From Porphyridium purpureum (Eukaryota), in assembly GCA_008690995.1 (NCBI GenBank), contig VRMN01000001.1:124001-188000 (forward strand): a DNA stretch of 64,000 bases. Direction: 5' to 3'. The position numbers were made by a program, and so were the translations under genes. The notes beneath the pieces are model-generated. The model saw nothing but the letters and a program-made list of their open reading frames with translations, was not told the origin of the DNA and ran no database searches. Positions 18,041-63,356 of the stretch are shown here, in pieces (the first letter of the stretch is position 1; every line of letters begins with the position of its first letter).

Positions 18041-19183
18041 CTAAGCGCCCTTTACATTCGTCGGACGAGACAAACAGTACAGTTCTATTTTCTCCTTCGC
18101 AGGGCCCCAACCTTGATCTGCAGCCTTGTAAAGCCAGAACGCTGCGATACGGGTGTCTTCAGGGAGGCTAGCTTCTCCGTGGTAATACAACAAGCCCAAA
18201 AGTGTCTGTGCAAGGTCGTAGCCTTGGTCTGCAGACTTGCGGATCCAGTACACAGCTTTGGCCTCGTCCAGCGGAACGCCTCCTTTACCGTGATACAGCA
18301 TCACACCCAGGTTGAACTGCGCTTGGTGATTTCCCAGCTTGGCGGCTTTGCGAGTACACACAATTCCCTTTTCAGTGTCGTATTTCAGGCCTCCGGTTTC
18401 ATTCATGTAATTGACGGCCATCTCAAACAGCGCTCCGGCATGATCCTGCTTCGCAGCTTTACGATACCACTCGACCGCCGCTTTTGGATTTTTTTCGGCG
18501 CCTCGTCCTTCCTCAAAAGCCATGCCGACGCAGTACTGCGCCTCGGCGTTTCCTTGCTGTGCGGCTTTCAGAAACCAGTCGAACGCCTTGAAGTGATCTG
18601 ACTCGAGACCGCATTCTCCCTTTTGATATGCGACGGCCAAGACGAGCTGGGCAAGCACGTATCCAGCATCTGCCGATTTTCGAATCCAGAGCAGCGCCTC
18701 AGTAGAGTTTCCTTTGTCCTTCTCTCGTAGCCCGCGCTGGCACCACGCCTCGCTTTCGTCACCTACTGCTTCCTCGCTTGCTGGCGCTTGCGGAGCGGGC
18801 GGATTCGGGTCTGCTTCGCGTTCAGCATGATTCTCAGATTTCGCGGCATTCAGAGTTGCCTTGACTGGATCGTACGGTGGTAGTGTGTTGGAACTCGACG
18901 CTTCACGTTGAGAATCCCTTGGGCTGTCATTACCTACAATCACTCCCGTCAAACGACGAGCCGAGTGTGACGACGCCCGCGTGATAGACACAAGCCTACC
19001 CGCACGCATTGCTGCGACTCTGCTCGTCGACGACGCTACGGTTCCGAATCGCGCTGGAGTCACGCTTCCGCGAAGCCAATCTCGCGGCGTGCTCCACACC
19101 GGCCCGCCACACGCAACCGTATCTCGCGTGCACGAACGCACGACCGCGCCGCGCGCGACGCGCAAGCAGCTCACGTTCCTCAT
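18041..19183 (-). CDS. SEL1-like repeat protein, probable mitochondrial presequence
   Basis: 380-aa ORF with about 5-6 SEL1 repeats (GNAEAQYCVGMAFEEGRG...) and an Arg-rich N-terminus. Confidence 0.92.
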   Translation of the reverse strand: MRNVSCLRVARGAVVRSCTRDTVACGGPVWSTPRDWLRGSVTPARFGTVASSTSRVAAMRAGRLVSITRASSHSARRLTGVIVGNDSPRDSQREASSSNTLPPYDPVKATLNAAKSENHAEREADPNPPAPQAPASEEAVGDESEAWCQRGLREKDKGNSTEALLWIRKSADAGYVLAQLVLAVAYQKGECGLESDHFKAFDWFLKAAQQGNAEAQYCVGMAFEEGRGAEKNPKAAVEWYRKAAKQDHAGALFEMAVNYMNETGGLKYDTEKGIVCTRKAAKLGNHQAQFNLGVMLYHGKGGVPLDEAKAVYWIRKSADQGYDLAQTLLGLLYYHGEASLPEDTRIAAFWLYKAADQGWGPAKEKIELYCLSRPTNVKGA

Positions 19184-19321
19184 TCCGTCCGGCTCTCCTC
19201 CACGTGCCGCACCACGCGCATGCTCGACGCTGTTTGCACTGCGGAACGTTGCTATGTCGATTGGCGAGTGCAGCAGTCTGGATATTTACGGAGCGAGCTG
19301 GTACTGCGGTCGGTAGCAGCA

Positions 19322-28136: not shown

Positions 28137-28414
28137 TGTAGTGTACACTGGGTGTACACCTCGTGGCTGTGTACAGTATGGGTAGAGGAGCGCGCCGCGA
28201 TTGTAAGCGGCCGGAGAGCGTGGACGGTCTCACTAGCCCGCTCTTTCGGGTAAGGAGTGTTTTCTTGGAGCGTGCTCGTCGACTACCAGTAAAGCTGTGT
28301 TTGTTGGTTACTGCGGCACTGCCACACCCTTCACGCGCACACGAACAGCGCGTACGCGTGAGCTCGATCGCCGCACCACTCCGTTGGCCATCGAGGAGGA
28401 CGTATTCCTCTACT
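28137..28414 (+). repeat. 5' LTR (TGTAG...CTACT)
   Basis: Direct repeat of 33718-33995. Confidence 0.97.
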
Positions 28415-28429
28415 CACGCTCCAAGAAAA
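28415..28429 (+). promoter_or_regulatory. Primer-binding site complementary to the element's own LTR (28260-28274)
   Basis: CACGCTCCAAGAAAA abuts the LTR end and is the exact reverse complement of TTTTCTTGGAGCGTG. It has no TGG start (complement of tRNA CCA). Confidence 0.85.
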
Positions 28430-28462
28430 TCTGAGAGTCTGCGACACCGGTGACAAACGAGA

Positions 28463-29572
28463 ATGTCACGTGTCGGACAAAGCGGCGCAGGCCGTTCGCC
28501 GCACCCACGCGAAGCCGGTCTTGTAGAGACACTTCCGCTGCTCACTTACGACAGCACGCGTGTGGTGCCGGCCGCGGTGGTAGTTTGGGTCGAGGAGCTC
28601 GGCAACTACTGCAAGAAGGAATACGGCGCTATCGGCACAGCGTTTGCGATAGAGCGCCAAGGACGCGTGTACCCCACCTTGCCGACGATCCCGCAAGCAA
28701 CCCCAGGGCTCGGGGAGGCGGGACGGGAGGATTGGTACAGCGCCACCGTCGCCAAGGAAGAGCTCAAGCTGGCGCTCGCGGCGCGCTCGGACGCGATACG
28801 CAAGGACAAGGAAACTCGCGTGCGCGTGTTTGGACTCATCATGGGCCAACTGAGCCGCGCATCTAAGGAAGCGCTGGCCGTAAAGCCCGGCTGGAGTCAA
28901 CTCGTACGAGAATCGGACGATCCGCTGCAGCTTCTCGAGCGCGTGATCGAGGCGCACCTGACCCGTGGCTACGACGACCCGCTGCGTAACCAGCAGTATG
29001 CTCGCATGTCGTACGATCAACTGAGAGTTGGAGCAGACGAATCACTTGTTTCGTTCAAGACGCGCTTCAAGGCAGCGGTGATGGCCCTTGAAGCCGTGGG
29101 CGAACCAGTGCCGTCTTCCGAGCGCTGCGCGGCTGACTTTATCCTAAAGCTTGAAGGTACGCGCTGGGACGAAGCCGTACGCAAGTGCAACAACGAGCAC
29201 CGACGGTTCGACACGGTCGACCAGGCAATGTCTTTCATGGCGCAGTTCGCGTACGCGAAACAACCGGTACAGGGTCGCACTTGGCGGACGGACACCGAAC
29301 ACCCAGAAGACGAGGACACAGATGATGTGGAGCTCGCAGCAGCACCACGCGTACGCGAATGCTACAACTGCGGCGCGGATGATCATCTCCTTCGCGACTG
29401 CCACGCGCGACCGCTGGACAGCGGAATGGCCGATAGGATGCGCGCGGCGAAGGAGAGGCAGGCGCGCATGGCGAGGCGCGACACGCGCGGACGCGGGCCG
29501 GTGCTGGCCGGGGCGACGGAGCAACAGCTGCGGGCCGCACTTGACGCGTTGAAAAGGAACGCCGATGCATGA
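28463..29572 (+). CDS. gag: Copia Gag with CCHC zinc knuckle
   Basis: 369 aa; 'CYNCGADDHLLRDC' knuckle; ends in TGA in frame with pol. Confidence 0.93.
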   Translation: MSRVGQSGAGRSPHPREAGLVETLPLLTYDSTRVVPAAVVVWVEELGNYCKKEYGAIGTAFAIERQGRVYPTLPTIPQATPGLGEAGREDWYSATVAKEELKLALAARSDAIRKDKETRVRVFGLIMGQLSRASKEALAVKPGWSQLVRESDDPLQLLERVIEAHLTRGYDDPLRNQQYARMSYDQLRVGADESLVSFKTRFKAAVMALEAVGEPVPSSERCAADFILKLEGTRWDEAVRKCNNEHRRFDTVDQAMSFMAQFAYAKQPVQGRTWRTDTEHPEDEDTDDVELAAAPRVRECYNCGADDHLLRDCHARPLDSGMADRMRAAKERQARMARRDTRGRGPVLAGATEQQLRAALDALKRNADA

Positions 29573-32500
29573 CGGTGTGCGACGTGGCCCACGGGCTTCG
29601 GTGACGAGATACCTTTGGGTCTCGACACCTGCTCGGGTGTTCACGTCATGAAGGATAAGGGGTTAGTCCATCGGGTAAAGAAAATTGACGAGTATTTGCT
29701 GCTGTCCGGAATTGACGCGCGGGCGAGCGAGCTGGCCATCGGGCACGGCGGTGAGACGGCCTTCGGCATGGCGTACGTCAACGAGAACCTTGCAGGCAAC
29801 GTGCTGTCTATGACCAAGCTGGTCGCGGAAGGGCATGATGTACGCTTCGACGCGGATGAGAACCGCTTCCGCGTACGCGTGCCGAACTCCAAGCGCTGGC
29901 TGGTCTTCGCGCCCGATGCACACGGAATGTACACTGCGATGATACGGCGTGCAGATCTCGTGCACACGACGGGCCCAGCATACAAGAAGGCAGCCACGAA
30001 TAAGGACAACCGGAACAGCTGCCGGGCCGGTCCATCGTCTGCCAAGGCTTGGACCTCAAGCACAATCACGACGGTCGCCAGCAACCTTGCCCGATGCACG
30101 GTACGCGAGGTTGAACGCGCACGCGCCGCTCGCTCTCTGCAGGCGAGGCTGGGATTCCCATCCTTTGGTGTGCTGAAGCGCATGCTTCAGCGCGGGGACA
30201 TAAGCAACTGTGACGTCACGTCGGCGGACCTCGAGCGTGCGAATGCAATCTGGGGCACTCCACTGCCGTGTGTGAAGGGAAAGACAACGGGACACGCGAC
30301 ACCGAGGCTGTCTGAAACGGTCACCACTGGTCCCAAAGCGCGCCAGGTGATGCACTCCGACCTGATGTTCATCTCGAAGGTGCCTTTCCTCGTGTCGGTC
30401 TTGAAACCGAGTCAATACATCCTGGCCACCGAGCTGAAGCGGAAGGACGCGCCTTCGGTGCGCGCGGCGGTGCAGCGGCGGTTGAACGAGGCCCGCGGGC
30501 ATGGAGTGCAGATACCTGAGATTCGGTTCGACCGTGAAAGCGCAGTCCTGTCGCTCTGGATCGAGTTGATGGAGGCCGGCATCCTGCCCGAGCTAACCGC
30601 GGCAGACGAGGTGGTGCCCGCCGCTGAGCGAGCGATTCGCCTTCTAAAGGAAAGGGTCCGCACATTGTCGTACGACCTGCCGTACACCATGCCATTATGC
30701 ATGCTGCCGGGAGCCGTGGAGTTCTCTCGACAGAGACTGAACATGGTGACGAGCGAGGCCTCCGACGCGGGCGAACCGGCGCACGCCATCTACTTTGGTC
30801 GTAAAGTAGACGCGAAGACGGACCTACGTGCTCCATTCGGGGCGTATGTCCAGGCACATACAGCGTCCGTGGACAGCACGATGAGGCCCAGAACGTTGGG
30901 CTGCCTCACCCTGCATTCCGCCGAGAATGCTGCGGGAAGCTGGGTGCTCATGAATCTGAACACACTGAAGCCCATCGTCAGACAGGTGTGGACAGAGCTC
31001 CCGGTACCGGACCACCTGATCACGTACGTAAATGCGCTCCCAACCGTGGCAGGCATCGACGATGGCGATCAGGACCTCGGCCGCACGGAGGTGGAACTCT
31101 CGCAGGAGGAAGACAAAGAGACGGCGGAGGTCGAGGCGGCGCTGAAAAACGGCGGGCCGGTCGACGAGCCAGCGGCGGAGGGGCACACGTATCTGGACCA
31201 GCCAGAAGACGCGGTACTGCGTGAACAGGCGCAGACTCCGACACACGCCGACACCGATCACCCCGCACCGGCGGGCGCCGACGTGCTGAGTAAGGATGAG
31301 TCACCGTCCACTCCCACGCAGTTGCGCATGGAAGAGATGCGACGTGCAGCGGATTCACTCTTCGAGGCGGGGCGAGCAATGACGCCAACGACTGCGGAAG
31401 CGACCGGCGAGGGTCTGCCAAGCACGGACGCAGTACTGCCGGAGCCGCTTATCGTGGCAGAATCTGTGGAAACCCATGTGCCCGAGGAAGAGGCGTCGAC
31501 TGATCCACCCGCTACTGCCGCACGGCCGCACGGCGACGCCACAATCACCAGTCCGGACGCTTCAGACGGCGAAGCGGCCTTGACCCCCTCGGTCGCCGAG
31601 GTGACAATGGAACAGGCCAAAGCGCGGGTGGAAGCAATTGAAGAGAAGCTGCGAGCGCTGGAGGAACGTGAGGCGCGTCTGCTGAGTCAGATGACCACGG
31701 AGCCATCGTACGCGGACGCCGTCCGAAATGCGGTACCGCGCACGAGCGAAGCCGAGCATGCCCGCGCCGTCAGCTCTCCGCGTCGGACACGGAAGCGGAA
31801 AGCAGAAGGGACATTCCCGGACGTCGAGCGCGAAAAGAATGAGCGGCTATCGCGCCGCGAGAAGGAACGCCTGCGTGTACGGCGCGCGCCGGAGGTCGTG
31901 GTCGCCCTGAAACGAGAGGCGGAGGACTTGCTATCTTCTGCGATGCCGGGAAAGCGCAGACACAAAACGCTGAGGATCGGCGTACGCCAGGCGATACGCC
32001 AATACGGTATGGAAGGACTCAAGGCGATTGTCGCTGAGCTGTTGCAGCTGTCCAAGCACGGTCTGGACGTGCTGGAGCCGGTCCACGTGCACACGCTCAC
32101 GAAGAAACAACGAGACGGGATCATACCGTCGTTCATGTTCGTGAAGGAGAAGCACGATGCTTCAGGCGCCTTGGAGAAAATCAAAGCACGAATGGTGGCC
32201 GGCGGGAACGAGCAAGATCGATCGGAGTACTCCGACTGTTCGTCCCCCACGGTGGCGACCGAGGCTATTTTCTTACTGGCAGCCGAGGCAGCGAGAAGCG
32301 GTGCCGCAGTCGCCACGATTGATTTCCCCGGGGCATTTCTCAACGCAAGCATCCCCGACAGCGACCCACACACGTACGTGAGGATCAACAGAAACCTGAC
32401 CGGGCTGCTCGCCGCCGTAGATAAGCGCATGAAGCAGTTCGTCAAGAACGGTGTTCTGGTCTGCAGGTTGAAGCGCCCGTTGTATGGATGCATCGATGCG

Positions 32501-33631
32501 TCCAAGCGTTGGTATGACCACCTCTGCGAAATGTTGAGCGAGCTCGGATTCGAACAGAATGCTTACGACGCTTGTGTCTTGCGGAAAGTCTCCCGTACGG
32601 GCGAGCCTTCCGTCACAGCGCTTGTGCACGTGGACGACGTGAAGCTGATCGCAGAAAGCGAGCAAGCGATTGATGAAGTGGTGGCGCGCGTACGCGAAAG
32701 GTTTCCGTCGCTGCAGGAGCACCGAGGGCGCACACACAGCTACCTGGGGATGGAGTTTGACTATACCTCCCCGGGGGTGGTGCGCATCGGGATGGGCGGG
32801 TTTGTAGACTCTTTACTGCGAGAGAATGACGTACGCGGTACCGCAGACACGCCCGCTCAAGCCGGGTTGTTCGTGGATGACGAGTCGCAGTTACTGACGT
32901 CGCACGACAAGGAGGCGTTCCACAGCGCCACCGCAAAGGTACTATACCTCGCGAAGCGCATACGCCCGGACCTGCTCACTGCGGTAGCGTTTCTGGCTAC
33001 GCGAGTACAGGCCCCGGGCGAGAATGACCGCGCGAAGCTGACCCGCCTGCTGAGGTACCTCAACAAGACGCGAGACATGAGGCTGGAGCTGGGCACGGGT
33101 TGGGTTGCAGACGAGCGCGAGCCCGATTGCGCGAGCCATGCGGAGCCGCACGTAGAGTGCTATGTCGACGCCTCATTCGCGACACATGCGAACATGAGGA
33201 GCCACACGGGTGGCGTTGTGAGCCTGGGCCGCGGCGCGGCGTACGCCACCAGTGTCAAGCAGAAGCTCAACACAAAGAGCTCCACCGAAGCGGAACTGGT
33301 GGGCGTGAGCGATGTGATCGGGCAAGCGATATGGACGCGGAACTTCCTCGAGGCGCAGGGCATCCGCACAGCTGGCGTACGCCTACACCAGGACAACGAG
33401 GCGACCATGTCTCTCCTTGCACACGGTCGGGCGACCTCGCGTAGGTCGCGCCACATCGCGATCAAACACTTCTTCACGCACGATCTGCTGAAGAGGCGAG
33501 TCGCGACGATGGTACATTGTAGCACCGAGGTCATGATCGCGGACCTGCTGACCAAACCGCTGCAGGGAAAGAGGTTCGCACACCTCCGTGATATGATCCT
33601 CGGGCGTGCGCCGACAGCGCAAGAACCGTAG
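29573..33631 (+). CDS. pol: Copia Pol (protease-integrase-RT-RNase H), in frame with gag after one TGA
   Basis: PR 'GLDTCSGVHV'; INT 'MHSDLMF..IRFDRES..AERAIR'; RT 'KIKARMVAGG..IDFPGAFL..PLYG..HVDD'; RH 'YVDASFA..KSSTEAELV..QDN..IADLLTKPL'. Open from 29573 to the stop at 33631. Confidence 0.95.
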   Translation, partial: RCATWPTGFGDEIPLGLDTCSGVHVMKDKGLVHRVKKIDEYLLLSGIDARASELAIGHGGETAFGMAYVNENLAGNVLSMTKLVAEGHDVRFDADENRFRVRVPNSKRWLVFAPDAHGMYTAMIRRADLVHTTGPAYKKAATNKDNRNSCRAGPSSAKAWTSSTITTVASNLARCTVREVERARAARSLQARLGFPSFGVLKRMLQRGDISNCDVTSADLERANAIWGTPLPCVKGKTTGHATPRLSETVTTGPKARQVMHSDLMFISKVPFLVSVLKPSQYILATELKRKDAPSVRAAVQRRLNEARGHGVQIPEIRFDRESAVLSLWIELMEAGILPELTAADEVVPAAERAIRLLKERVRTLSYDLPYTMPLCMLPGAVEFSRQRLNMVTSEASDAGEPAHAIYFGRKVDAKTDLRAPFGAYVQAHTASVDSTMRPRTLGCLTLHSAENAAGSWVLMNLNTLKPIVRQVWTELPVPDHLITYVNALPTVAGIDDGDQDLGRTEVELSQEEDKETAEVEAALKNGGPVDEPAAEGHTYLDQPEDAVLREQAQTPTHADTDHPAPAGADVLSKDESPSTPTQLRMEEMRRAADSLFEAGRAMTPTTAEATGEGLPSTDAVLPEPLIVAESVETHVPEEEASTDPPATAARPHGDATITSPDASDGEAALTPSVAEVTMEQAKARVEAIEEKLRALEEREARLLSQMTTEPSYADAVRNAVPRTSEAEHARAVSSPRRTRKRKAEGTFPDVEREKNERLSRREKERLRVRRAPEVVVALKREAEDLLSSAMPGKRRHKTLRIGVRQAIRQYGMEGLKAIVAELLQLSKHGLDVLEPVHVHTLTKKQRDGIIPSFMFVKEKHDASGALEKIKARMVAGGNEQDRSEYSDCSSPTVATEAIFLLAAEAARSGAAVATIDFPGAFLNASIPDSDPHTYVRINRNLTGLLAAVDKRMKQFVKNGVLVCRLKRPLYGCIDASKRWYDHLCEMLSELGFEQNAYDACVLRKVSRTGEPSVTALVHVDDVKLIAESEQAIDEVVARVRERFPSLQEHRGRTHSYLGMEFDYTSPGVVRIGMGGFVDSLLRENDVRGTADTPAQAGLFVDDESQLLTSHDKEAFHSATAKVLYLAKRIRPDLLTAVAFLATRVQAPGENDRAKLTRLLRYLNKTRDMRLELGTGWVADEREPDCASHAEPHVECYVDASFATHANMRSHTGGVVSLGRGAAYATSVKQKLNTKSSTEAELVGVSDVIGQAIWTRNFLEAQGIRTAGVRLHQDNEATMSLLAHGRATSRRSRHIAIKHFFTHDLLKRRVATMVHCSTEVMIADLLTKPLQGKRFAHLRDMILGRAPTAQEP

Positions 33632-33717
33632 GGCGTACGCATCGTCTCGTGTGACTCGCTTCGCCGTCGGGTGGCTTGTGTGGAGCGGGTGGTAGCTTCC
33701 ATCGCGGCGAAGGAGTG

Positions 33718-33995
33718 TGTAGTGTACACTGGGTGTACACCTCGTGGCTGTGTACAGTATGGGTAGAGGAGCGCGCCGCGATTGTAAGCGGCCGGAGAGC
33801 GTGGACGGTCTCACTAGCCCGCTCTTTCGGGTAAGGAGTGTTTTCTTGGAGCGTGCTCGTCGACTACCAGTAAAGCTGTGTTTGTTGGTTACTGCGGCAC
33901 TGCCACACCCTTCACGCGCACACGAACAGCGCGTACGCGTGAGCTCGATCGCCGCACCACTCCGTTGGCCATCGAGGAGGACGTATTCCTCTACT
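33718..33995 (+). repeat. 3' LTR
   Basis: Identical to 28137-28414; preceded by purine-rich GAAGGAGTG (putative PPT). Confidence 0.97.
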
Positions 33996-39856: not shown

Positions 39857-39884
39857 CAATCTCAACCTTCCACCTCGCAATAAA

Positions 39885-40198
39885 CGTGGGAACGATGAGG
39901 TCCCGCTGAACCGCGGACTCCCGTGTTCACTTGGCCGGCGGTGCGGCATAAGTACGTTCTGTGGAGCGGCCGGGTCCCGGCCGGATAACTAGCGAAGATA
40001 AGAGACTCTTTAGCGTGGTGAGGTAAAGGTTCGTCGTTTATTCGGAGCGATAGGGAGCCGGCGCAGAATCGTCTGCGCGCCTCGAAGAGTCCGCCATATT
40101 AGTGGCCCACGTGTTGCACGTTTCGCCGTGCGCACCCGCACCCCTTTCGGGCGTAGCATCGATCTTTCTCGGCCGATCCCTTGGAGCACCTCTCCAAG
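39885..40198 (+). repeat. 5' LTR (CGTGG...CCAAG)
   Basis: Direct repeat of 45134-45447. Confidence 0.96.
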
Positions 40199-40213
40199 GG
40201 TTATGAGCCCAGC
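40199..40213 (+). promoter_or_regulatory. PBS complementary to the anticodon stem-loop of initiator tRNA-Met (half-tRNA primer)
   Basis: GGTTATGAGCCCAGC abuts the LTR. Its complement GCUGGGCUCAUAACC contains anticodon CAU, the same PBS type as Drosophila copia and yeast Ty5. Confidence 0.88.
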
Positions 40214-40495
40214 GGCGGAAGCCGTCTGCGCGTATATTGATCACATGCTTAACTTCGTGTTCGCTTGATCGGTCGTGGGTTTATTTGGTTTGTATCATCT
40301 TTGCTTCGGGGAGTTGGCTCGTGTGGAACGTCGGGTGTCAACTTCGGACGCGGTCGTTGTGTCTCGCTTGACATCGACCCCAACCGCGATACGGAGCTCG
40401 TGAGTGATAGAATCAAGAAGCGAAACAGTCCATCGCCTGGACCATCACGAGATCGTCGCGCCAGGAGGCGGACCTCGTGATCATAACTGTCGGTC

Positions 40496-43400
40496 ATGGA
40501 CGACCGTGAGCAGGAGCAGTCACGTCTGCGCGCAATTATGGCAGCGAGACAGCAATCGTTGGAACCACAACCTCTGCAGCAGGGTGGAGGTACGCAAGGC
40601 AATGCACAGGCTGGTCCATCGCCGACCGAGTTTGACATGTTGATGGCCAGGGTGAGAGCGGAATTATCCGCCGACTTACGCATGGCACAGCAGCGCATTG
40701 AGGGTCTGGAGAGCGATTTGGCGCACGAAAGAGCAGCGCGATCGGCTTTGGCGTCCGCGGGCGCGGGGCAGGTGGTTCATCAGCGGGGAAAGTTGCTTGA
40801 ACCTGCACGTATGCCGGCGTATGACGGGAAAAGAGACCTAGTAAAGATCCTGACGTGGATTTCGGCGGCTCGCGACCGAGTGATTGAGCCGTACAAGGAC
40901 GAAGTCGCGGCGGTTGGCGAATCTTGGGACGACGCAGCCGAAAAGAGGGTCGTTCGAAACCTCGCTGGGTTCCTGACGGATGACGCGCAGTTGTGGTGGA
41001 TTCGCCTGAGGGAGCAGCCGTTCACGGTTGAAGCATTTCTAGCCGCGCTCGAGATGCGGTTCGCCCCGGTGAACCCAGGCGCTCGGGCTAGAGATGAGCT
41101 GTTCGCGTTGGAGCAGAATAGCACGAGCGTGGAAGAGTATACAAATACTTTCTCCTCGCTCTGTCTGCGCATTGAAGACGCCACAGAGTCTGAATTGTTC
41201 GACAAGTACAAGCGAGGGCTTGACAAGGACATTAGGGTGCAAACCGAACTTAAGGGCACATCCAGCTTGGAAGAAGTTATCCGCGTAGCTTCGGAGATCG
41301 ATGCCATCATGCACCCGGAACGCGCCCGGACTGCCAAGAAAGGGCAGACGCCCTACGGGGACGGACCGGCTCCCATGGAGCTGGGCTCCGCTGAGCGCGG
41401 CGGGAAAAGCGTAGGTGCTGGCAGCGGCGGTAAAAGAAAGAGTGGTCGAAAGAAGTGGAAGGCTCGGGACAGCGGGAGGAGAGATGGTCTGAAAAAGGAT
41501 CAATGCGCCAACTGCAAACGCATAGGGCATTGGAAAAAGGATTGCCCGGAGCTCGCCGCACAGGCGGCTGAGCTGGAACTACTCACTGCGAGCACCAGAC
41601 CAAAAGTCGAGAGGCTTGTGAAGAGAAAAATGTGGGTGAATGGTCACCAAGTCGACGCAGTGTTTGATACAGGCGCGACGAACACATATGCTTCGCTCGC
41701 TTTCTGTGAGAAAATTGGTGTGGCGGTGGACCGGCGCGCTGCCGTGGGAGGAGTTCGCTTGGCGGATGGTACCATGTGCAGGCCCGAAGGGACCGCGCGC
41801 CTGACGTTGAGAATGCATGGGGCTCGGGATGCAAAGTTGTCCGCGGTGGTACACAGAGCGCGTCACGAGCTCATAGTGGGCCTGGACTGGCTGAGGGCGC
41901 AGAAGGCGCATTTGTCCGTGGGAGGCATGGAACTACTCAGCACGGATGCGGAGAAAATCAATGAGAAGCCCAATGAGCCAATTAGAGCCACAGAGCCGGT
42001 GAGGGTTCTGGACCACGACCTTTTGCATATGCCTGCGAAGGAAGATTGTGGGATTTGTGCCCTGGGCAAAATACAGAGAGTGCGCGCGGTGCGTCGCAAA
42101 GAGAGTGACTCCAATGCAATCATCGACTTTAATGAGGCCGTCTCCATTGATCTCGTGGACCCCTCCTCGGTTGGTGTGGATGGGACGAGATGGGTTCTGG
42201 TACACAAAGACATCGGAACGGGCTGGGTCTCTGTGACGGGCCTGAGGAATAAACTCGCCGACACGGCCTCGTTCGCGTTTCGAGAGATACAGCGGGGCCG
42301 CGGTTGGCCTCGGCTGGTGAAAAGCGATGGCGGCGGAGAATTTGGAGGTGTTTTCGAAGACATGCTCCGAGACCACCTGGTTGCCCACGAAAAGGGCATA
42401 GCGAGGCGTTCAAACACGCATGCCAGTCAAGAGAGGCTTCACAGGGACATGAATGCGACGGTGAGGGCGCTTCTAATCCAGTCCGGGTTGCCATCGTCAT
42501 GGTTCTGCTTCGCGGCTCGGTATTGGGCGGATGCTCGAAATCTCGTTTGGGCTGGGCGCGGAGGCGGTACCACCGCGTACGAGAAACGATTCAATACTAA
42601 ATGGAAATTGGAGCTGCCTGCGTTTGGCCGGGGCGTCGTAGTTTACGACGAGGCTTCCGACAAGAATGAACCGAAGGGCTCTGTCGCAATCGTGGTCGGT
42701 TTTCGGATACCAGAATCAGCAGTCATCAAACAACGACTGAATTGCCTGGTGATCCCTGTTTCAGATATGAGGCCGGCAGCGGCGCGATGGGTACAAGAAT
42801 GGAAACTGCTCAAAGAAAAGTATCCCGTCGTAAGAAAACAGCTCAGGCCCGTTGAAGAAGAATTCGCCCGCCCGCCGGACCCTAAACCAGTTGCTGACGA
42901 CGAGGGGCAGCAGTACCCTGGAAGCGGTAGGAATGATAAGAGCGACGAGACCGGCGAGACCTCGGAAACCGAGCCGCCGGCCGACTCAAGAGAGAAAAGT
43001 AATGAGATAGAAACAGGTTTCAAAGAATGCGTACGTGCAAGCGAAACAGAAGCGCCTCCGATGGGGCCGCTCGCGACAGTAGACGGTCGATCGCGAAAGG
43101 GCTCGTGGAGCAGCGAGCAAATTGCGGCTATTTCGGGCGGCTTCACACGACTGGGTCCAAAGTGGTCGCAAATTATCAAAGAGAGTAAGGCCGCCTTGGC
43201 TGGTAAAACAGCGAAAGACGTGCGCTCGAAAGCGCAGGCGCTCGGATTGCTCGGCTCACAAGCCCAAGGTCTTGGCGAACACAGGCGCGGGAGGAGCGGG
43301 GCCTTGCGGCGCGCGAGGGTGAAGTTCGTAGAAGTTGCGGAAAAAGGGGTGTCGGCGCGGGCAGAGAAGGTCAGCGTGCCTCTTGCCGGAGCGACGGCCT

Positions 43401-45088
43401 TAGTTCAAGAGCTGCTGGTAACGCAGGTGATCGAATCCAAGAGTGCCATGGCCTCGAGTGCCGGTCGCGATGCTTTTGTCCGCGAGTTGACCGCGTTGAG
43501 AAGCGTCGGCGCGCTTCCGCTGGAGAAAGCGGTCGAGCGCAGAACGGCGACGCGAACGCCGCACGCACAGTTTGTGAAGCTGAAGGCCGTGTTCGGAATC
43601 AAAAATGCCGAACTAGGGCCCAGCGCGTGGAAACACAAGTGCCGACTTGTGTGTCAAGGGTGCGTGGTTAGAGACGCAACCGGAACCCTGGTTGTGAACC
43701 CATTTGATTGGGAGAAGCCGCCTGGTTTAGTAGCCATCAGGGCCGCATTAAGCGCAGCGCTGTTGGAGCACGGAGAACAGGCTGACGCTGCGTTCTTCGA
43801 CGTGGACAACGCATACGTACACGCGCCCCTCGGGGGTCCTCCGACATTCGTCGAATTAGCCGGTCTTACTCGCTGGTTGAGAGGTTGCATACCGTCCAGT
43901 CTGTCGTCAAAGCTCGAAGCCATGGAGAGGCCCGTCGTCAGGCTGCCCATGGCGCTGTATGGCTTGCCACGCAGCGGAAGCGACTTTGGAGCTCACGCAC
44001 GGTCAAGACTTGAAGGTCTGGGTTGGAAAGAATCCGCCTCAGATAAGAACGTATACTGGAGAAAGCGAATGGGTAAGACGGAATGGACAGTCCTATACGT
44101 TGATGATGGGGCGGTTTTCGGTGACAGTGGGGCAATACGGGAGGCGGTTGCGGAGATGAAAAAGGAGTTCTCTATCACCCGCGCGATTGAATACATGCGC
44201 GAAGCGACAAAAGAAAACCCTGTGCGGTTCCTGGGCATCGGGTTCTATGTCGACAAAGACATGGACGGTGCCTGGGTGATGAGTTCACGAGAGTATGCAC
44301 GGCATATGCTAGCAGACGGTCAAGAGAGGCAGGCGCGAAAGACTCCGATGTCTTGTAAACCTGAGCCCGACAGAGATGGCGAGGTCTGTGACAAGAGCGT
44401 GAGACGCACCTTGGGGCGTATTTTGTGGCTGGTTCGGACAACCAGGCCAGATCTGGCATTCGCAGTTGGTACGGTAGCGCGCTGCACGGATCGCTGGGGT
44501 GAAGAAGCCGAAAAGGGCCTGAACGACATCATGCGGTACCTGCAGGGCAGTGCCGATGCGGTGTTGGTGTTTCGCGTGCCACCTCTTTCGGGTGCCGGCA
44601 GGGCCTTGCCTGTGTCTGTATCTTGTTATACTGACGCAGACTTCAGCGCAGAGAGGTCGACTAGCGGCGTGTGCACTTTCTTTGTTGGTAAGAATACGAG
44701 ACACCTTGTGGACTGGTCAAGTGGGCGGCAACGCCGGACCGCGACCTCAACCGCCGAGGCGGAACTGATCGCTGCACATACAGCAGTGCAGTATCGTGTC
44801 TTTCCGCTGGGCGTGTTTATCGAAGAATGGCACAATGTATGGCCAAAGGTGGCCATGTATGTCGACAATGAGACCGCGCTAAACGCGATCAACAAGGGAT
44901 GGAGTGACAAGATGTTGCATCTTCACAAGATGCAGAAAATCAGCCTGAAATGGCTGAACGAAGTGTCCAAGGACGGCCTGGCAGACTTCGTGCACGTGAA
45001 CAGCAAAGACAATCTTGCAGACGGTTTGACGAAGAATCTCGCAGTCGACTCGTTCCAAAAGCAACGCCATGGTTGGTGCGTCGTCTGA
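40496..45088 (+). CDS. Gag-Pol polyprotein: retrotransposon Gag, CCHC, aspartic protease, integrase, Myb/SANT, RT, RNase H
   Basis: Gag 'FLTDDAQLWW..SVEEYTNTF..KYKRGL..GPAPMELG'; CANCKRIGHWKKDC; PR 'AVFDTGATNTY..IVGLDWL'; INT 'HDLLHMPAKEDCGIC..SIDLV..KSDGGGEF..SQERLHR'; Myb 43094-43252; RT 'KCRLVCQG..DVDNAY..LYGL..LYVDD'; RH 'YTDADF..STAEAEL..VDN..NLADGLTK'. Confidence 0.96.
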   Translation: MDDREQEQSRLRAIMAARQQSLEPQPLQQGGGTQGNAQAGPSPTEFDMLMARVRAELSADLRMAQQRIEGLESDLAHERAARSALASAGAGQVVHQRGKLLEPARMPAYDGKRDLVKILTWISAARDRVIEPYKDEVAAVGESWDDAAEKRVVRNLAGFLTDDAQLWWIRLREQPFTVEAFLAALEMRFAPVNPGARARDELFALEQNSTSVEEYTNTFSSLCLRIEDATESELFDKYKRGLDKDIRVQTELKGTSSLEEVIRVASEIDAIMHPERARTAKKGQTPYGDGPAPMELGSAERGGKSVGAGSGGKRKSGRKKWKARDSGRRDGLKKDQCANCKRIGHWKKDCPELAAQAAELELLTASTRPKVERLVKRKMWVNGHQVDAVFDTGATNTYASLAFCEKIGVAVDRRAAVGGVRLADGTMCRPEGTARLTLRMHGARDAKLSAVVHRARHELIVGLDWLRAQKAHLSVGGMELLSTDAEKINEKPNEPIRATEPVRVLDHDLLHMPAKEDCGICALGKIQRVRAVRRKESDSNAIIDFNEAVSIDLVDPSSVGVDGTRWVLVHKDIGTGWVSVTGLRNKLADTASFAFREIQRGRGWPRLVKSDGGGEFGGVFEDMLRDHLVAHEKGIARRSNTHASQERLHRDMNATVRALLIQSGLPSSWFCFAARYWADARNLVWAGRGGGTTAYEKRFNTKWKLELPAFGRGVVVYDEASDKNEPKGSVAIVVGFRIPESAVIKQRLNCLVIPVSDMRPAAARWVQEWKLLKEKYPVVRKQLRPVEEEFARPPDPKPVADDEGQQYPGSGRNDKSDETGETSETEPPADSREKSNEIETGFKECVRASETEAPPMGPLATVDGRSRKGSWSSEQIAAISGGFTRLGPKWSQIIKESKAALAGKTAKDVRSKAQALGLLGSQAQGLGEHRRGRSGALRRARVKFVEVAEKGVSARAEKVSVPLAGATALVQELLVTQVIESKSAMASSAGRDAFVRELTALRSVGALPLEKAVERRTATRTPHAQFVKLKAVFGIKNAELGPSAWKHKCRLVCQGCVVRDATGTLVVNPFDWEKPPGLVAIRAALSAALLEHGEQADAAFFDVDNAYVHAPLGGPPTFVELAGLTRWLRGCIPSSLSSKLEAMERPVVRLPMALYGLPRSGSDFGAHARSRLEGLGWKESASDKNVYWRKRMGKTEWTVLYVDDGAVFGDSGAIREAVAEMKKEFSITRAIEYMREATKENPVRFLGIGFYVDKDMDGAWVMSSREYARHMLADGQERQARKTPMSCKPEPDRDGEVCDKSVRRTLGRILWLVRTTRPDLAFAVGTVARCTDRWGEEAEKGLNDIMRYLQGSADAVLVFRVPPLSGAGRALPVSVSCYTDADFSAERSTSGVCTFFVGKNTRHLVDWSSGRQRRTATSTAEAELIAAHTAVQYRVFPLGVFIEEWHNVWPKVAMYVDNETALNAINKGWSDKMLHLHKMQKISLKWLNEVSKDGLADFVHVNSKDNLADGLTKNLAVDSFQKQRHGWCVV

Positions 45089-45133
45089 ACCTCGAGACAG
45101 AGTGGAGTCCGGTGATTTGCGCGTGAGGAGGCG

Positions 45134-45447
45134 CGTGGGAACGATGAGGTCCCGCTGAACCGCGGACTCCCGTGTTCACTTGGCCGGCGGTGCGGCATAA
45201 GTACGTTCTGTGGAGCGGCCGGGTCCCGGCCGGATAACTAGCGAAGATAAGAGACTCTTTAGCGTGGTGAGGTAAAGGTTCGTCGTTTATTCGGAGCGAT
45301 AGGGAGCCGGCGCAGAATCGTCTGCGCGCCTCGAAGAGTCCGCCATATTAGTGGCCCACGTGTTGCACGTTTCGCCGTGCGCACCCGCACCCCTTTCGGG
45401 CGTAGCATCGATCTTTCTCGGCCGATCCCTTGGAGCACCTCTCCAAG
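45134..45447 (+). repeat. 3' LTR
   Basis: Identical to 39885-40198; preceded by short purine tract GAGGAGG. Confidence 0.96.
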
Positions 45448-45599
45448 ATAAACACTGTACTCGGTGTACTCGGTGTACTTAGTGTACAGTTGCGCCCGAG
45501 CGTTTTGTGGAAGGCCGACTTGGTGGTGAGTGTGGGAACGGCCAGTGAGTTGGGAAAAGTGGGAGTGTTGGACGCGCGAGTGCGATGCGTGGTGGAGCG

Positions 45600-46260
45600 G
45601 CGGCCGGACAGAGGTGCCGGCAAATGCGCTGATGCGCGCCCTCGTCAAACGCGACCTGGACGCTGTCAGTGCGGGTGTGTGCGCGGATGCCAAGTTGCTG
45701 CGATTGAATGCAGCGTTCGGAGGAATGAGTGTGCGCCGTTAAGCGGGATGGCTGACCTTTTGCAGACGCCGTGCCGCGGCTGCTCGCTCGCGATGCGCAA
45801 CTTTACTTCTCGAGTAGACGTATGGTCGCTCTGAATGATGGCGTATCTGGTCAGCATGGTAAGGGCATTGTCAAGGCGCTTCGGAATCCCGGTGCGGACA
45901 CGTACCAGTGAACCACCTCGAAAGTCACACTGCTAAGTGCCGTGGCGGCGAGCAGGGCGCGTGGATGTTGTCCAGTGACCCTTACTTTGAGGCACAGATA
46001 TGGCTGCTCCGGAACAGACTCGTGAAAAGACCCGCCCGACACCTCGCCGTGGAACTTACGCATCGGCATGTTGTTGAGCTGGCTTGGAAGCCGGCCTCGG
46101 TGTGAACAAGGTTTGACGTGAACGGCCCCTGTGCATAGTATGTAGCCTTGCACTGGGACTTGCTTGATGTAGAAAGAATCCTTTTGGCACATGGCGCAGA
46201 CTCAAATGCCAAGACGCACGGCGGTGACCCGCCGTTGGACAGTGGACATCTTTTCAAAGA
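45600..46260 (+). pseudogene. Ankyrin-repeat pseudogene fragments
   Basis: Frame-hopping ankyrin-like pieces with stops: 'GIVKALRNPGADT', 'PARHLAVELTHRHVVEL', 'LLDVERILLAHGADSNAKTHGGDPPL'. Confidence 0.6.
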
Positions 46261-47559: not shown

Positions 47560-48818
47560 GACGTGCTGCTTACACAACACCATCATCTAACAACCGCGCG
47601 TGTTTTGCTAGAAAAACACGGCGGCTCGAGCGTCAAATCTTAACGGTTTGCTTGGCGTTTCGGCGTTAAACCGTTAAAGAAAGAAGTACAGTGCGTACAG
47701 TAGTGGGTGGGGAGTGAAGGCGCTTGTGGTTGGTGCGCGCGGGGGAACTGGTGACAGGTGTGGAGAGTTGCGGCGGTGTGGTTGTGGAGTGGAAGACCAA
47801 AGCTCCACTGATGCGCAGCAGACATGGGCGTGAAATGCTCTGCTCGTATATGCGCAGGCGTCGGCACGCTGCGTAGTGTGTGCGGAGCTCGACACGATAC
47901 AGGCCTGGTCACGTTGACGTGTGTCTATGTGATCGTTTCCTGCAGCCGGGACACGGACGAGGGAACCTGAGGGCTGCAATTTATTATTTTTTTGCCTGAC
48001 TTTTCCTTCAGCAGGCGTGGGAACAGAGGCGCTATTCGGAATGCTGATATTCTGCTCATGTTACTGCTCCTGCTGGTGGTGATCCGGGCCAAAGCAAACC
48101 TAAATGCAACCGTAACATCGCGAACTTTGGCAAGACGGATGAGATCAGCGATCCAAACATGCGCGCGACGCGTGCAATGCAGACTCGGACTGCTGCCAAT
48201 CAAAGGGCGCGTGCAAACGTCGTGTCAAGGGGTCCCAATCTCCATCTGATTCCTTTCACTGTGTCGCTGCATCTCGCACAGCGTGACGAAATGGGAAACG
48301 AGACCCACGCATGTGGAACGTGGAGACAGAGAGAAGCGGCATCCATTCGTAGAGTACGGTACCAGTACCTGTGCGTGTATGTCTTTCCAGAGCTCGAGCT
48401 TATGCTTCGTATACTTTATTTCTCTGCAACATTACACTGTACAACACCAGCTCTTCAATGCCATAATTCACTTCTGAACCTTTGGTGGTCGTCCTTTCTA
48501 TCGTCGTTGGCGCTAACATCATCATCTCCACAACTATCATCATCAACATGAAATCTGTGTCATTCGCGTATCCCGAAACATTCTCGTTCTCCAATGACCG
48601 GCAAGTCCTACCCTTTCTTTCCGCGGCGTGCTCCATCAGCGAAGCAGAGAAGCTGTATGCGCCCATGAGCCCGGTCGAATTCTAAAACGTGGGTACCTTT
48701 GCTGCGGGCCAATGTCCTTTGCTTCCATCCCCGTGTTCTCTTCTGGCCGATACATAGGAAAGTACAGTCGATGTCCACGACCAAGATCTGGGGCCAAGAG
48801 TCCTGACGACATCTCCTG

Positions 48819-50057: not shown

Positions 50058-50431
50058 GCTCGCGCGACCATGGCGCGCGCCCTCCCACCCCCACCGACGA
50101 TCCACTCAAACCGACCCCACCCACGCACGCACACGCGCTTACTTTTCCTGCTCTCGGCCTCGCCTCAAACCGCTACCGCCACTGCGCCCGCTGCGCGCCC
50201 GCGCGGGCGCCAACGCGCGGCCCGTATCAAAACACCGCCGTTTTACTACACCCGCGCAAACGCCCCGCACCGGCTGCGCACAACCCTAGCGCCATCACGC
50301 CATCGCTGTACCTTACGGGTGTACACCTCCCGTTCCACCCCACAACCGACGCACTGTACTTCCACCGTACTTGGCTGTACTTGGCTGTACTTTGTGTGGG
50401 CGGTGTAAGCGAGGTCGATGCGTGAGAAACC

Positions 50432-59347: not shown

Positions 59348-61919
59348 GCCAGGTCGTTTCGAGCTTTGGTCGTCTCCTCTTTGGCGCTTCACCTGCCCTC
59401 TAGGCACAGAAACCGCAAACACTAACCCTATTAGGGTAGGGTTTCTCCGTTGATCATCAGCTGAAACTGTACCTCTTTACTGTACCGCATGCCTTGCAAG
59501 GCTAGTGCAGGAGGGCCGAACATGCAGAACGACGGAAAACTTTGTGCCCAGGTTCTGGTAATGCGCGCGCGCGGGCACGTACCGCACGTGTGGTCTTCTC
59601 GTATCGAGGACGATGCATTATCATCCGTTCCACGCAACACTTCTTCTTCAGGAGAAACTCCATTTGCAAGGTACGCGGAAGAACATTCTCAGCCACAAGC
59701 GACTCTGCAAATCCGCACTGTCTGCCCGGGGTGCCTTGTAGACAGTCGCATCTGCCTTCTCATGACTCGTGTGGGAGGCATCGTAGGCGTCGCTCGTGAC
59801 TCACTCCCATATCCCGCACTGAAGTCCGACAATCAGTTTGCAGGAAAGACATGCACGAAACTGTTCGACGGCTTGCTTTCTTGCTCGCTTGCGTAATTGC
59901 TTAATTGCTTGATTGATTGATCAGCGCAGCTCAGTAGCTTTGTCCATTTCATAGCGGATGGATGAATCCGTCATTTGGGCGCCCAAAGCTACCTGATCAT
60001 CAGAACTGATACATTCCGGCCTCGGCTCTACAAGGGCGTGCATATATTTAACACTTACGTAGCTTTTCAGAGCTTCTACTGGTCTGCAGGCCTTTCAGGC
60101 TTTGAAGCCGGTTAGAAAACTGACCGGCTAGCTTTACGCTAAAGAGCTCAGGGTGGTCCAATGTTGAGGACATTGATCCGACATTGCGCAGCCTCGACAA
60201 GATTACTGCCCGATTTCCTATTGTAGTGGATGGAAATCTGGCCATCCCTAAAAAAATATCAGTGTATTGATATCAGCTTGTCATATACCATTCGATCATT
60301 CATATCGCTTGCCAGCACAGAAATATGAACATCCTAGCCATATAAATTTAGAATTCCATCAAAGTTACCAAATAGACCAGCACATGTCGAAAACATGTGT
60401 TGAAGACGTCCGAAGAGAAGAATTTTGCAGACAGGGTCTCTGAGTTGAAACTGAGATATGCTATACCAGTCCACAGCTTTCCTATTCAATTGCGGGTGAA
60501 CACCATGTCCCACGATAGAAGAAACGCTTTGTCCATTTCATCAAGTCTTGCATGGCATGTTTAGGGCGTGGGGACTGGAGTGAATGGATCGCTGGCGGAC
60601 TGTATAATAGTGCTGTAAATATGGAAGTCCTCCCAGGATCGACTAGCACTACTCAAGAGGCAGACTGTGGTAATTTTTAAACTTTTCTGTGCTCGATTTT
60701 GACGTGTGATAACCTCCCTCGCTAAGAGGATGAAACACACATACCTGCACTCAATCCGTAAAAGACCGTAAACTACTTAATATCTCCTGTTTTGACCTGG
60801 TGACTAGCTTTTTGATATACTGGACGACTCATGCATCAGGCACCTCCAGCTCTTCACAAGCTTTCAGGTACTTGTTCTTTGCGTCTAGAACAGTAATAAG
60901 GGTCTAAAACGAGAGGTCGGACCTTCTGTGGTAGGCGACTAAATAGCTTCAGCACCGTGGTCTTTTCACGGGTGCCCCCTTGTATCAAATACCTTCTTTC
61001 GACTGTGACTGGAAGCCGTAAGATCCTTCAGAAGTGAAGACCTTACTAGGACTGATTAGGATCCTTCTCCACACGCAGAGAAAGTAGGCCCATCCAATCA
61101 TGCACCTTATCGCTGAGAGCTTCCATTCAGACGAGTTTATCTTGTGATATCGGATGCTGGCCAGCCGGGAAGCTAATGCACTTTGCTATCGGGCTACCAG
61201 AAGGGAAAAGTTGTTTTGTGCTACCTTGCACGTATGCGAAAGGTTCTCATGCTATCAATGACCCTGGAAGCACTCCCAACGAAGTAGGTCTTTCCGTAGC
61301 CTTGGAGTGGAGCTTGAGCTGAATTTCCCAACATCGAGCCAGTTCACGTTTGAAGAGGAAGTCCATGCTGACTGCAAAGTTTCCTTGGACCTATTGAGCA
61401 ATCACTGGCTGCATCGAAGGTATGCATACAAACTTTTCCACCGGTTGAAAGTCCTGAGGGTGAATCTCCTCGTACGAAAGTCAGATTCTGCACCAGTCAA
61501 CATTTGCTCATGTCCAGCAAACCTGCATTCACCACCTTGCAACCGATTTCCGCTCCAAGCAAGTTTAACACTGCTCGCAAGAGCTTCCTGAACCCTGGAC
61601 ATAAACAAGCCGGATAAACATGGTCCCGCGTAGGTGGCTAGGGTCAAACATTTCGCCGCCGCGGTTGCAGGATAACTAGGAAACGGCGGCACATATATTT
61701 CGTCTGGAGCATGCGAGCGGGAAGAAATTTACTCCATACTAAGAACACATTTGATAGGTCTTTTAAATAAAATCATCAGGGATGGAGCTAAAGAACTGTT
61801 TGAAGAAATTTTGAGTCTTTTTGCGGACAGGTTAGTCAGACTACGGTAGGCTTAACACATGGAAAGACACCAGAATTGAAGACTCACATCCTCATTGGCT
61901 GGCCTTTCATACACACCTA

Positions 61920-63356
61920 AAGTGCGACCAAATCGGATAGGGGACAGTACCTCTTTCAAGTTTTACTAGTAAAATGATCTGCTTTACTATAAAAAGGATA
62001 GAGGTCCGGTGAAAAGGGAATATGAAGGAGGTCAAAACGGATAGGGGACACGGCACATTTCTGGCCATTACTCAGCCATAGAGAATCGGAATTGGTCGCG
62101 GTTTCCTTGCACGCACGCGCCTCGAAGATACGCACAGTTAAATATTCGTTTCGGCAGCGACGCGTACAAATTGGCCATCACAGGCTGGTCCAAATCCTCC
62201 CAAGCCAGTAAAATGGCATGCTTGATCTCTAGCACCGTCTGATACAGCCTTGCACCTTCGTGAACTTTGCGCGATAGTATCCCCCACAGATTCGCGATGA
62301 TATTGAAGTCCGGCGAGTACGCTGGCCAGTAGAAGCTCCACATTCTCGTCATTCATGAAATTCTTAACCAGGCGACTTGTGTGCACTGGCGCGTTATCCT
62401 GCTGAAAAACCATGTTCGGGCCGACTATCTGACGGCAGCAGTCCAGCACATTGTTCTCTCGAAGCATGGAAACATATTTTGCAGCCATAAATGACCCCTC
62501 AATAAAATGAAGGTGAATCTTTCCTCTTGCAGAAATTGCACCCCAAACCATGCATCCACCGCCGCCGGAATGTCGCGACCAAACGTCTGGAACGTCCGCC
62601 GCACGCTCAACCCACGTCTTGTGGAAATCATCGGGTCCGTCCAGGTTGAACTTCTTTTCGTCAGTGAACACATCTTCGGCCCAATTGGTCTGTTCCAGCT
62701 GATGATGCCTGGCCCAGGCCAGCCTCTTGAGTTTGCAATTGAGTGTCAGTGGCGGACAAGCTGGAATTTTGCGGTATGCATGCGTGACACTCATTGCCTT
62801 CCTGATTATCGTCAAACTTTGGATTGGTTTAGCTCCACGAATTCGCAGAGCTGCTTGAACCTGACGTGCCGTGTGAATGTTCGGAAGCTTAGCGATGTTA
62901 AAAATCTTCGTTTTGACTGCCTCAGTCAGCTTTAAAGCGTTCACATTGGCATATTTCTGGCAGTAGTCGTTTGGAGCCGACAAATAGCGGGAAACCACGT
63001 TCTTCGAGCGCCCAATTTTGGTCGCAATGGCTCTCACGCTGTTGCTCGACTCTCGGAGACCCTGGATACGTCCTTTCTCCTCGCCCGTAAGGCCAATATT
63101 GCGCCCCATGGAGTCAAAATGGAGCTCTTCACGAGCTGCGATGGATCCGCACTTTTCCGCTTACACTGAACCGCCGACGTCCGAGATATTTCGCTTCCAC
63201 GCAGTGTCCCCTATCCGTTTTGAGCCACAAATTTCGTCGTAACCGTTGTAGACGAACCCCGCCGTTCTACTTTCATAGCAGAAGATTAAAATTTACTATT
63301 AATTAACTATTTTTTCTAAACATTTTGACTGTCCCCTATCCGATTTGGTCGCACCT
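61920..63356 (-). mobile_element. Tc1/mariner DNA transposon with IR/DR-type ends
   Basis: 29-bp TIRs (AAGTGCGACCAAATCGGATAGGGGACAGT; one mismatch) with TA flanks (61918-19, 63357-58). Inner copies of CGGATAGGGGACA at about 62038 and 63205. Confidence 0.95.
62068..63109 (-). pseudogene. Tc1-family transposase, frameshifted
   Basis: HTH start 'MGRNIGLTGEEKGRI', 'FTDEKKFNLDGPD', 'FQQDNAPVH'. A frameshift near 62335 continues into 'WPAYSPDFNIIANLW', where the catalytic E position reads A. Confidence 0.9.

Follow-up and report, generated by a model that had tools for sequence, protein, structure and literature searches.

In a 64,000-nt stretch of the genome of Porphyridium purpureum (contig VRMN01000001.1, positions 124,001 to 188,000; hereafter the window, with positions counted from its first letter), an intact Copia-order long terminal repeat (LTR) retrotransposon occupies positions 39885-45447, flanked by a 5-nt target-site duplication and bearing identical 314-nt LTRs. 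It represents a Copia-order lineage that combines a conserved Myb repeat at the C-terminus of its integrase (INT) with base-precise insertion beside the 7-mer ACTGTAC, a combination that we regard as real and as going beyond what an earlier sequence-only reading had claimed. The Myb domain is likely the cause of this targeting, and our favoured explanation, to which we assign a probability of roughly 0.55, is that it reads ACTGTAC and tethers the integrase to its target, much as the Myb domain of the element R2 serves R2. The wider picture stands at about even odds: it would make this the first LTR lineage to aim itself through its own DNA reader (a TRF-like Myb taken up by capture, its recognition helix rewritten, that reads ACTGTAC with base precision), a lineage that swaps such modules (Myb, Cys/His finger or both) and joins a Gypsy-type Gag and protease (PR) to a Copia-type INT, reverse transcriptase (RT) and RNase H (RH) between LTRs ending in CG...AG.

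The evidence for targeting comes from the insertion sites. Eight of the 24 listed read runs were aligned to the element, and the read ends overhanging the LTR termini, inspected by eye, distinguish ten sites (S1-S10, S1 being the window copy); several of these are shared by different runs, so that the runs are not independent strains. The flank set leaves out mixed consensus rows (four, with an agreement of 0.56-0.62), those of related families inside the element, and the runs with low word shares, X19-X21. At S1, the duplication ATAAA is followed on the right by a C and then by ACTGTAC, the left side being devoid of the word. The right side of S2 (raw reads of X22 and X23) likewise runs AAACA, C, ACTGTAC, while S3 (X23) shows the duplication ATTCT on both sides, with the exact word in register on the left and none on the right. 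S4 (contigs of X8, X10 and X2) has GCTAA and, on the left, an exact in-register word with a further two GTAC words behind it, and S5 (X22, X24 and X2) has CCTTC on both sides, six of the seven bases of the word on the right and no word on the left. Over the ten sites, the word is thus exact at four, matched at 6/7 positions at one, presumed at one, matched at 5/7 positions or fewer at one and absent from three. Where present, it starts one base outside the duplication (bases 2-8), in either orientation and, wherever both sides were read, on one side only. Since the duplications and the distal flanks differ, the sites correspond to separate insertions, and no two sites share the same duplicated 5-mer.

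For the statistic, the defining side of S1 was set aside along with S2, S6 and S7, which had been aligned through the word, leaving 10 junction sides; the background (3.2e-4 per strand-position) was taken from the non-coding DNA of this single 64-kb window, with genes assigned by the length of open reading frames (ORFs). Two of the 10 sides carry the exact word (P(>=2) = 4.5e-6, or 4.9e-5 when allowing 11 registers) and three lie within one mismatch of it (P(>=3) = 4.7e-7). The element shows sequence-directed insertion beside ACTGTAC, and the one-sided position of the word, together with the differing 5-mers, fits a tether better than a symmetric preference of the integrase.

The candidate reader is the segment at 43094-43252 on the plus strand, between integrase and RT, in which a sequence-only reading had recognised a TRF/telobox-like Myb domain. 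The coordinates and sequence then given are correct and correspond to residues 867-919 of the 1530-aa ORF. The Myb pattern written out at the time matches in part, its EE being EQ here, its AL being AI and its D-L-K-D-K being D-V-R-S-K. In isolation, the domain matches the PF00249 Myb_DNA-binding profile (E = 1.6e-4, 22.1 bits, profile positions 1-43 of 46), and so do all six family versions, the window copy standing for P0002 (best E = 4.9e-7); at the level of the whole protein, P0003 reaches 24.3 bits for a cut-off of 24.4. Myb domains (c-Myb, Tbf1, Trf1) make up 11 of the 12 PDB sequence matches at E<=10, and a profile built from the six versions hits Tbf1 (E = 2.9e-6) and c-Myb (9e-6), with a coverage restricted to helices 1-2.

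The module is gap-free and sits at the same place in six of the eight close relatives found with Pol (P0002-P0006 and P0008). Across the 15 pairs formed by the six family versions, mean pairwise identity is 0.42 in the Myb segment, against 0.10 in the upstream linker and 0.19 in the downstream one, for 0.51-0.55 in the enzymes (RT: 0.51), so that the segment is indeed more conserved than its flanks. Within the window family, three near-identical copies have no substitution at all in the Myb domain, while 14-17 other residues differ from the window copy, and the domain is basic (10 lysines and arginines for 3 aspartates and glutamates). It stands where other integrases carry their targeting modules, and it is retained in families whose RTs are only 44-67% identical to that of the window element. 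A word-index search with the Myb profile (7998 candidates) returned nothing beyond the six P. purpureum clusters except a single plant R2R3 Myb (E = 0.026). This is weak evidence that the module is absent outside P. purpureum, and it did not point to a donor gene.

AlphaFold predicts three helices for the domain (predicted local distance difference test score, pLDDT, 82-86), in a model computed from nine sequences that remains a prediction and not a solved structure. In VIA-align, ranks 1-10 all go to TRF1, TRF2 and Tbf1 (Z 8.0-8.2), with root-mean-square deviations of 0.9-1.3 A over 49-50 residues for TRF1/TRF2 and 2.4 A over 64 residues for Tbf1, whereas c-Myb repeats score 6.6 or less and SANT domains 5.4-5.9; Tbf1 is also the top match in both Foldseek and profile searches. 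A Z near 8 may reflect a common arrangement, and Foldseek returned nothing at E<=0.001 for the 81-residue Myb model, which is why structure was weighed jointly with sequence rather than alone. In a model of integrase plus Myb, the latter folds separately after 85 low-confidence residues. The ESM Atlas clusters of the domain score 0.75-0.83, below 0.9, and were treated as a lead only, as was the resemblance of its C-terminal end to Timeless-type repeats (0.83). Altogether, the profile matches in 6/6 versions and the three-helix model bear out a single Myb repeat of predicted TRF-like fold, in line with the earlier Myb assignment. Of the two outcomes that the sequence-only reading had named as refuting it, a lack of any profile or structural match and a conservation no higher than in the linkers, neither was observed.

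The telobox part of that assignment is not supported. The recognition helix of TRF proteins carries the telobox signature LKDKW, with the third tryptophan. Helix 3 of the window copy, KTAKDVRSKAQAL, has DVRSKA at this place, the third tryptophan being replaced by an alanine that is invariant in 6/6 versions, next to one invariant arginine. The adjoining word ACTGTAC is not a telomeric repeat; no such repeat was seen by eye in the displayed flanks or found in the window, and a literature search for the telomere repeat of the host came back empty. With the signature missing and no telomeric flanks seen, telomere or telobox targeting is not supported. The predicted fold is thus TRF-like, with what would be a different read-out.

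The anatomy of the element and of its right flank is as follows.

39880..39884, plus strand: left target-site duplication, ATAAA
39885..40198, plus strand: 5' LTR, 314 nt, same sequence as the 3' LTR, ends CG...AG
40199..40212, plus strand: probable primer-binding site (PBS), directly 3' of the LTR
40496..45088, plus strand: single Gag-Pol ORF of 1530 aa, in the order Gag-PR-INT-Myb-RT-RH
40943..41551, plus strand: capsid of Ty3/gypsy type and CCHC knuckle (PF03732, PF19259)
41636..41896, plus strand: aspartyl protease, DTGA (PF13975/PF13650 type)
42017..42850, plus strand: integrase, with a short H-x3-H-x6-C-x2-C finger, a D,D-35-E core and a beta-rich C-terminal domain
42851..43093, plus strand: linker, variable and with predicted disorder, about 81 aa, 10% mean identity, pLDDT <50 (model residues 281-365)
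43094..43258, plus strand: single Myb repeat of predicted TRF-like fold, residues 867-921 (profile, model, conservation)
43259..43315, plus strand: basic tail 3' of the Myb repeat, 53-84% identity in four other families, absent from the P0008 family
43421..45088, plus strand: Copia-type RT and RNase H (RVT_2), YVDD at residue 1201, RNase H ending in ADGLTK
45125..45133, plus strand: short purine-rich tract, 5' of the 3' LTR
45134..45447, plus strand: 3' LTR, matching the 5' LTR exactly
45448..45452, plus strand: right target-site duplication, ATAAA
45454..45460, plus strand: target word ACTGTAC, one base outside the duplication, in the same register as at other copies
45454..45490, no strand assigned: host array of four GTAC-core words spaced by 9 nt, just upstream of a plus-strand transcript

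Motif reading places the catalytic residues of the integrase at D552, D611 and E646, and the Foldseek matches of its model are retroviral integrases (best E = 1.9e-5). The LTR ends, CG...AG and not TG...CA, are fixed at three sites by matching duplications (ATAAA, ATTCT, CCTTC), which implies that the integrase must accept non-CA ends. We take the PBS to resemble the internal (half) initiator-tRNA-Met site of copia and Ty5, and priming by such a short internal tRNA segment would be a hemivirus trait; no tRNA gene or Rfam family was detected in the 64-kb window, and no paper with the PBS string turned up in our literature search. The basic tail is possibly a DNA-binding arm or a nuclear localisation signal. 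The identical LTRs and the open frame point to a recent insertion; the closest protein, labelled Porphyridium purpureum, is 99% identical and belongs to a cluster of four members including the window copy, and RNA reads of the element (run X23) are mostly of the sense strand.

Ty1/copia elements (Pseudoviridae) are defined by the Pol order PR-INT-RT-RH between LTRs, with a PBS and a polypurine tract (PMC8515867), and this is the organisation found here. The RVT_2 match is above the cut-off in P0003, P0007 and P0009 and below it in the window copy, while the outside relatives found with Pol, among 16 proteins of which eight are close (P0002-P0009), are all Copia-like or unnamed. In the RT-RH tree, which contains no named GalEa references, the eight close sequences form one branch with a long stem (support 97/99), and the two relatives without a scoring Myb, P0007 and P0009, group together (94/100) to the exclusion of the six Myb versions. 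The tree does not decide between gain and loss of the Myb repeat, since 52-61 of 500 shuffles gave values as low and long branches come together. A Cys/His module (CxxC...CxxC...H...C...CxC), without match in Pfam or the ESM Atlas, is observed in the linker after the integrase in P0007, P0009 and P0008 (residues ~908-950); P0008 has it along with the Myb repeat, P0007 and P0009 have it at the matching position without a scoring Myb, and P0009 may keep a decayed trace of Myb. The P0008 cluster numbers 16 members, several of them carrying adjacent accession numbers and lying on one scaffold or on small ones, so that clustered or tandem insertions are possible.

The Gag and protease match PF03732, PF19259 and PF13975 and not Copia-type profiles, a Ty3/gypsy-type Gag-PR that is shared by P0005, P0006 and P0008 and whose only outside relative found is a plant Ty3-type protein (25% identity over 279 aa). 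The combination of this Gag-PR with a Copia-type RT suggests that the lineage is a Gypsy/Copia mosaic, without proving it, because GalEa elements, which are Copia, also have a DTG(C/A) protease. A metagenome scan yielded two distant Copia loci (24-26%), both lacking a Myb domain.

The target word itself has the distribution of a host element. ACTGTAC occurs 15 times in the window for 3.6 expected (a four-fold enrichment): 11 copies lie in non-coding or unassigned DNA, one in an ORF and three in LTRs of another Copia family (3485, 28171 and 33752), none being found inside the Myb element. Arrays with a GTAC core stand in non-coding DNA at 45454-45490, 47686-47701, 50308-50390, 59466-59485 and 12553-12575, among which four words at 50356-50387 and two at 59469-59482 are upstream of minus-strand ORFs. 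This insertion lies upstream of the minus-strand gene CCB1, at a distance of about 180 bases, and just before a plus-strand transcript (~45490-45900), which starts right after the GTAC array and in which no long ORF, Pfam or Rfam match was found. Probably, the word is a host regulatory element, a candidate promoter element; our literature search found no description of it in Porphyridium. Nothing here points to a targeting of tRNA or snRNA genes, as the window contains no Rfam match or tRNA gene. That the word is a host element fits a Myb domain that reads an intergenic word, and it feeds the idea of a host tether equally well.

If the Myb domain is the reader, proteolysis would leave it on the integrase and not on RT, and a single Myb would contact ACTGTAC through helix 3. 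The long linker would span to the target DNA and the intasome would capture the DNA beside the word in either orientation, the bound Myb holding the integration complex one base away from it. The likely gain would be that insertions fall into the spaces between genes in a compact genome, given that non-coding DNA is enriched in the word, which often forms small arrays upstream of genes. R2 offers a precedent, its Myb domain helping to read an upstream target motif, according to the available part of PMC12203849. The second Copia element of the window, which has no Myb, shows no word at the matching register (one site only).

Several observations weigh against direct reading by the Myb domain. 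On the side of the sites, the word at S3 is a consensus of four reads (agreement 0.78); the alignment of S6 (X10) reaches the last base of the word with its letters not displayed, so that the word is presumed; S7 (X13) has at most 5/7 of it; S8 (X13), where both sides are apparently seen with what seems a 4-nt duplication, has no in-register word, and neither have S9 (X10, with TGTAC inside the first six bases) and S10 (X13), each seen on one side. The four mixed rows were unreadable, 35 further loose-end rows stand outside the count, and the ten sites all come from the window family. On the side of the domain, the window copy (22.1 bits) is under the curated PF00249 cut-off of 24.4, helix 3 differs between families, and its N-terminal part is glycine-rich in P0005 and P0006. 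Finally, a host protein probably also binds the word, since it is enriched, arrayed upstream of genes and present in the LTR of a Myb-less Copia.

This last point leads to the alternative of a host-factor tether comparable to Tf1/Sap1 or Ty3/TFIIIB, where a host protein would sit on the GTAC arrays and the integrase would dock on it. We hold it to be rather unlikely; the Myb domain would in that case be a SANT-like surface for binding proteins or chromatin, or only an aid for holding DNA. The behaviour of the word as a host cis-element speaks for such a tether, as do the SANT domains among the structural matches; Tf1 targeting by Sap1 is reportedly single-nucleotide-specific, if one goes by the title of a 2015 study by Hickey. 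In the portion of the review available to us, the protein tethers described in yeast all go to host factors and Sap1 binds promoters and LTRs alike (PMC7175516). Yet the domain is basic and nearest to the DNA binders TRF and Tbf1, about 2 Z above SANT, and a peptide tether needs no whole DNA-binding fold, that of Ty5 being six residues long in the same portion (PMC7175516).

Less credible still is a choice of target by the integrase core and its C-terminal domain, the Myb repeat then binding the CG...AG ends, holding chromatin or assisting RT. Retroviral intasomes contact target DNA some bases beyond the duplication, and the word, 2-8 bases outside, is within reach of such contacts. Moreover, errantiviruses pair unusual LTR ends, as are those of the window element, with sequence-specific integration, for which the available part of PMC5408687 names no additional domain. 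In that same part, though, a preference set by the core is palindromic, with its centre at the duplication (PMC5408687), whereas here the 5-mers differ and the word is one-sided. At the far end, it is highly improbable that the Myb likeness is due to chance or is a neutral relic, the shared word then stemming from non-independent flanks or from survival in promoters. The sub-threshold Pfam score of the window copy, the empty Foldseek search at E<=0.001, the Atlas scores below 0.9 and the small number of sites would agree with it, but it is already largely refuted: conservation is four-fold above that of the upstream linker over six versions and PF00249 is matched in 6/6, the flanks diverge both within the duplication and past the word, as expected from separate insertions, and survival bias cannot fix a one-base register.

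Elsewhere in the window, the second intact Copia (28137-33995) has identical 278-nt LTRs ending TG...CT and the duplication GGCAC; its gag (28454-29572) and pol (29573-33631) lie in the same frame with one stop codon between them, making expression by readthrough possible. An inverted LTR copy of this element, 89% alike, is found at 3247-3527, beside diverged repeats also present near 11933-12254. A three-gene cluster at 13033-19285 contains repeats with a period of about 111 nt, presumably Sel1-like to judge by their sequence pattern. A Tc1/mariner-type transposase (Pfam DDE_3, HTH_Tnp_Tc3_1) occupies 62138-63160, with a similar-looking candidate remnant at ~10213-10947.

Known targeting by LTR elements relies on host proteins or histone marks, strict targeting by an element-encoded Myb being known from non-LTR elements. 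If our favoured explanation is true, this targeting would be new for LTR retrotransposons, and a natural integrase that has a DNA-reading domain of its own and a register of one base would demonstrate the possibility of aiming a DDE integrase directly. The system is small and testable (a 55-residue domain, a 7-mer and several sister families that differ in their helix-3 residues); the element is young and transcribed, and the host alga is transformable. The system could show how elements capture and retune targeting modules, and provide a natural model for site-directed integration.

Our literature search, whose coverage did not extend to Repbase and subscription journals, turned up no LTR element that carries a Myb domain. 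Among Ty1/copia elements, the GalEa clade is reported in Porphyridium and Porphyra in the part of PMC5445492 at hand, a paper in which "Myb" has no occurrence. The window element shares with GalEa, as far as the accessible parts of PMC5445492 and PMC3587641 describe it, a single ORF, a 5-bp duplication, a DTG(C/A) protease (DTGA here), YVDD, TRPD and ADxxTK. In the same parts, GalEa LTRs are 5'-TGT...CA-3', their PBS is TGGTAGCAGAGC (or a fungal hairpin site) and their integrase finger is HX4HX30CX2C, while the window element has neither these LTR ends nor this PBS and its finger is H-x3-H-x6-C-x2-C; membership was rejected on these three grounds. More generally, typical Ty1/copia elements have TG...CA ends and Copia-type Gag and protease profiles, and the window element has neither.

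Chromoviruses also bear a captured folded module for chromatin or DNA at the integrase C-terminus, as stated in the available part of PMC5408687, and a Ty3/gypsy-type Gag-PR like that of the window element. They differ by their Gypsy order, with INT last, and by their chromodomain, where the window element has the Copia order, a Copia RT/RH and a Myb repeat; since INT precedes RT and no chromodomain match was obtained in the polyprotein at E<=10, membership was rejected. Errantiviruses (gypsy, ZAM, Idefix) have in common with it sequence-specific LTR integration, which this review, in the same part, considers exclusive to them, and non-TG/CA ends (PMC5408687). They target palindromes of 4 bp that coincide with the duplication, whereas the window element has a variable duplication and a one-sided word outside it. 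In the LTR elements Tf1 (Sap1), Ty3 (TFIIIB), Ty1 (AC40) and Ty5 (Sir4), the integrase directs insertion to non-coding sites: Sap1-bound promoters for Tf1, and positions within 0-20 bp of a start site for Ty3. These elements use host proteins as tethers, and the portion of PMC7175516 available describes none that has a sequence-reading domain of its own.

As for the domain itself, the window Myb shares with TRF1, TRF2 and Tbf1 the predicted fold and the sequence of helices 1-2, and departs from them by its diverged helix 3, the replacement of the third tryptophan by alanine and sites seen without telomeric repeats. The closest parallel in targeting is with R2 and R4/Dong, which encode a Myb themselves and insert at a constant distance from a target motif: R2 reads a motif near its site with a zinc finger and a Myb (PMC12203849) and R4/Dong has a Myb-like domain (PMC7998251), both as given in the accessible parts of these sources. 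These are non-LTR elements with a restriction-like endonuclease, an N-terminal Myb and ribosomal DNA or microsatellite targets, whereas the window element has LTRs, a DDE integrase, a Myb between INT and RT and a dispersed 7-mer target. Its LTRs and DDE integrase led us to reject membership among them, and the likeness to R2, which is an analogy, would be one of targeting logic only.

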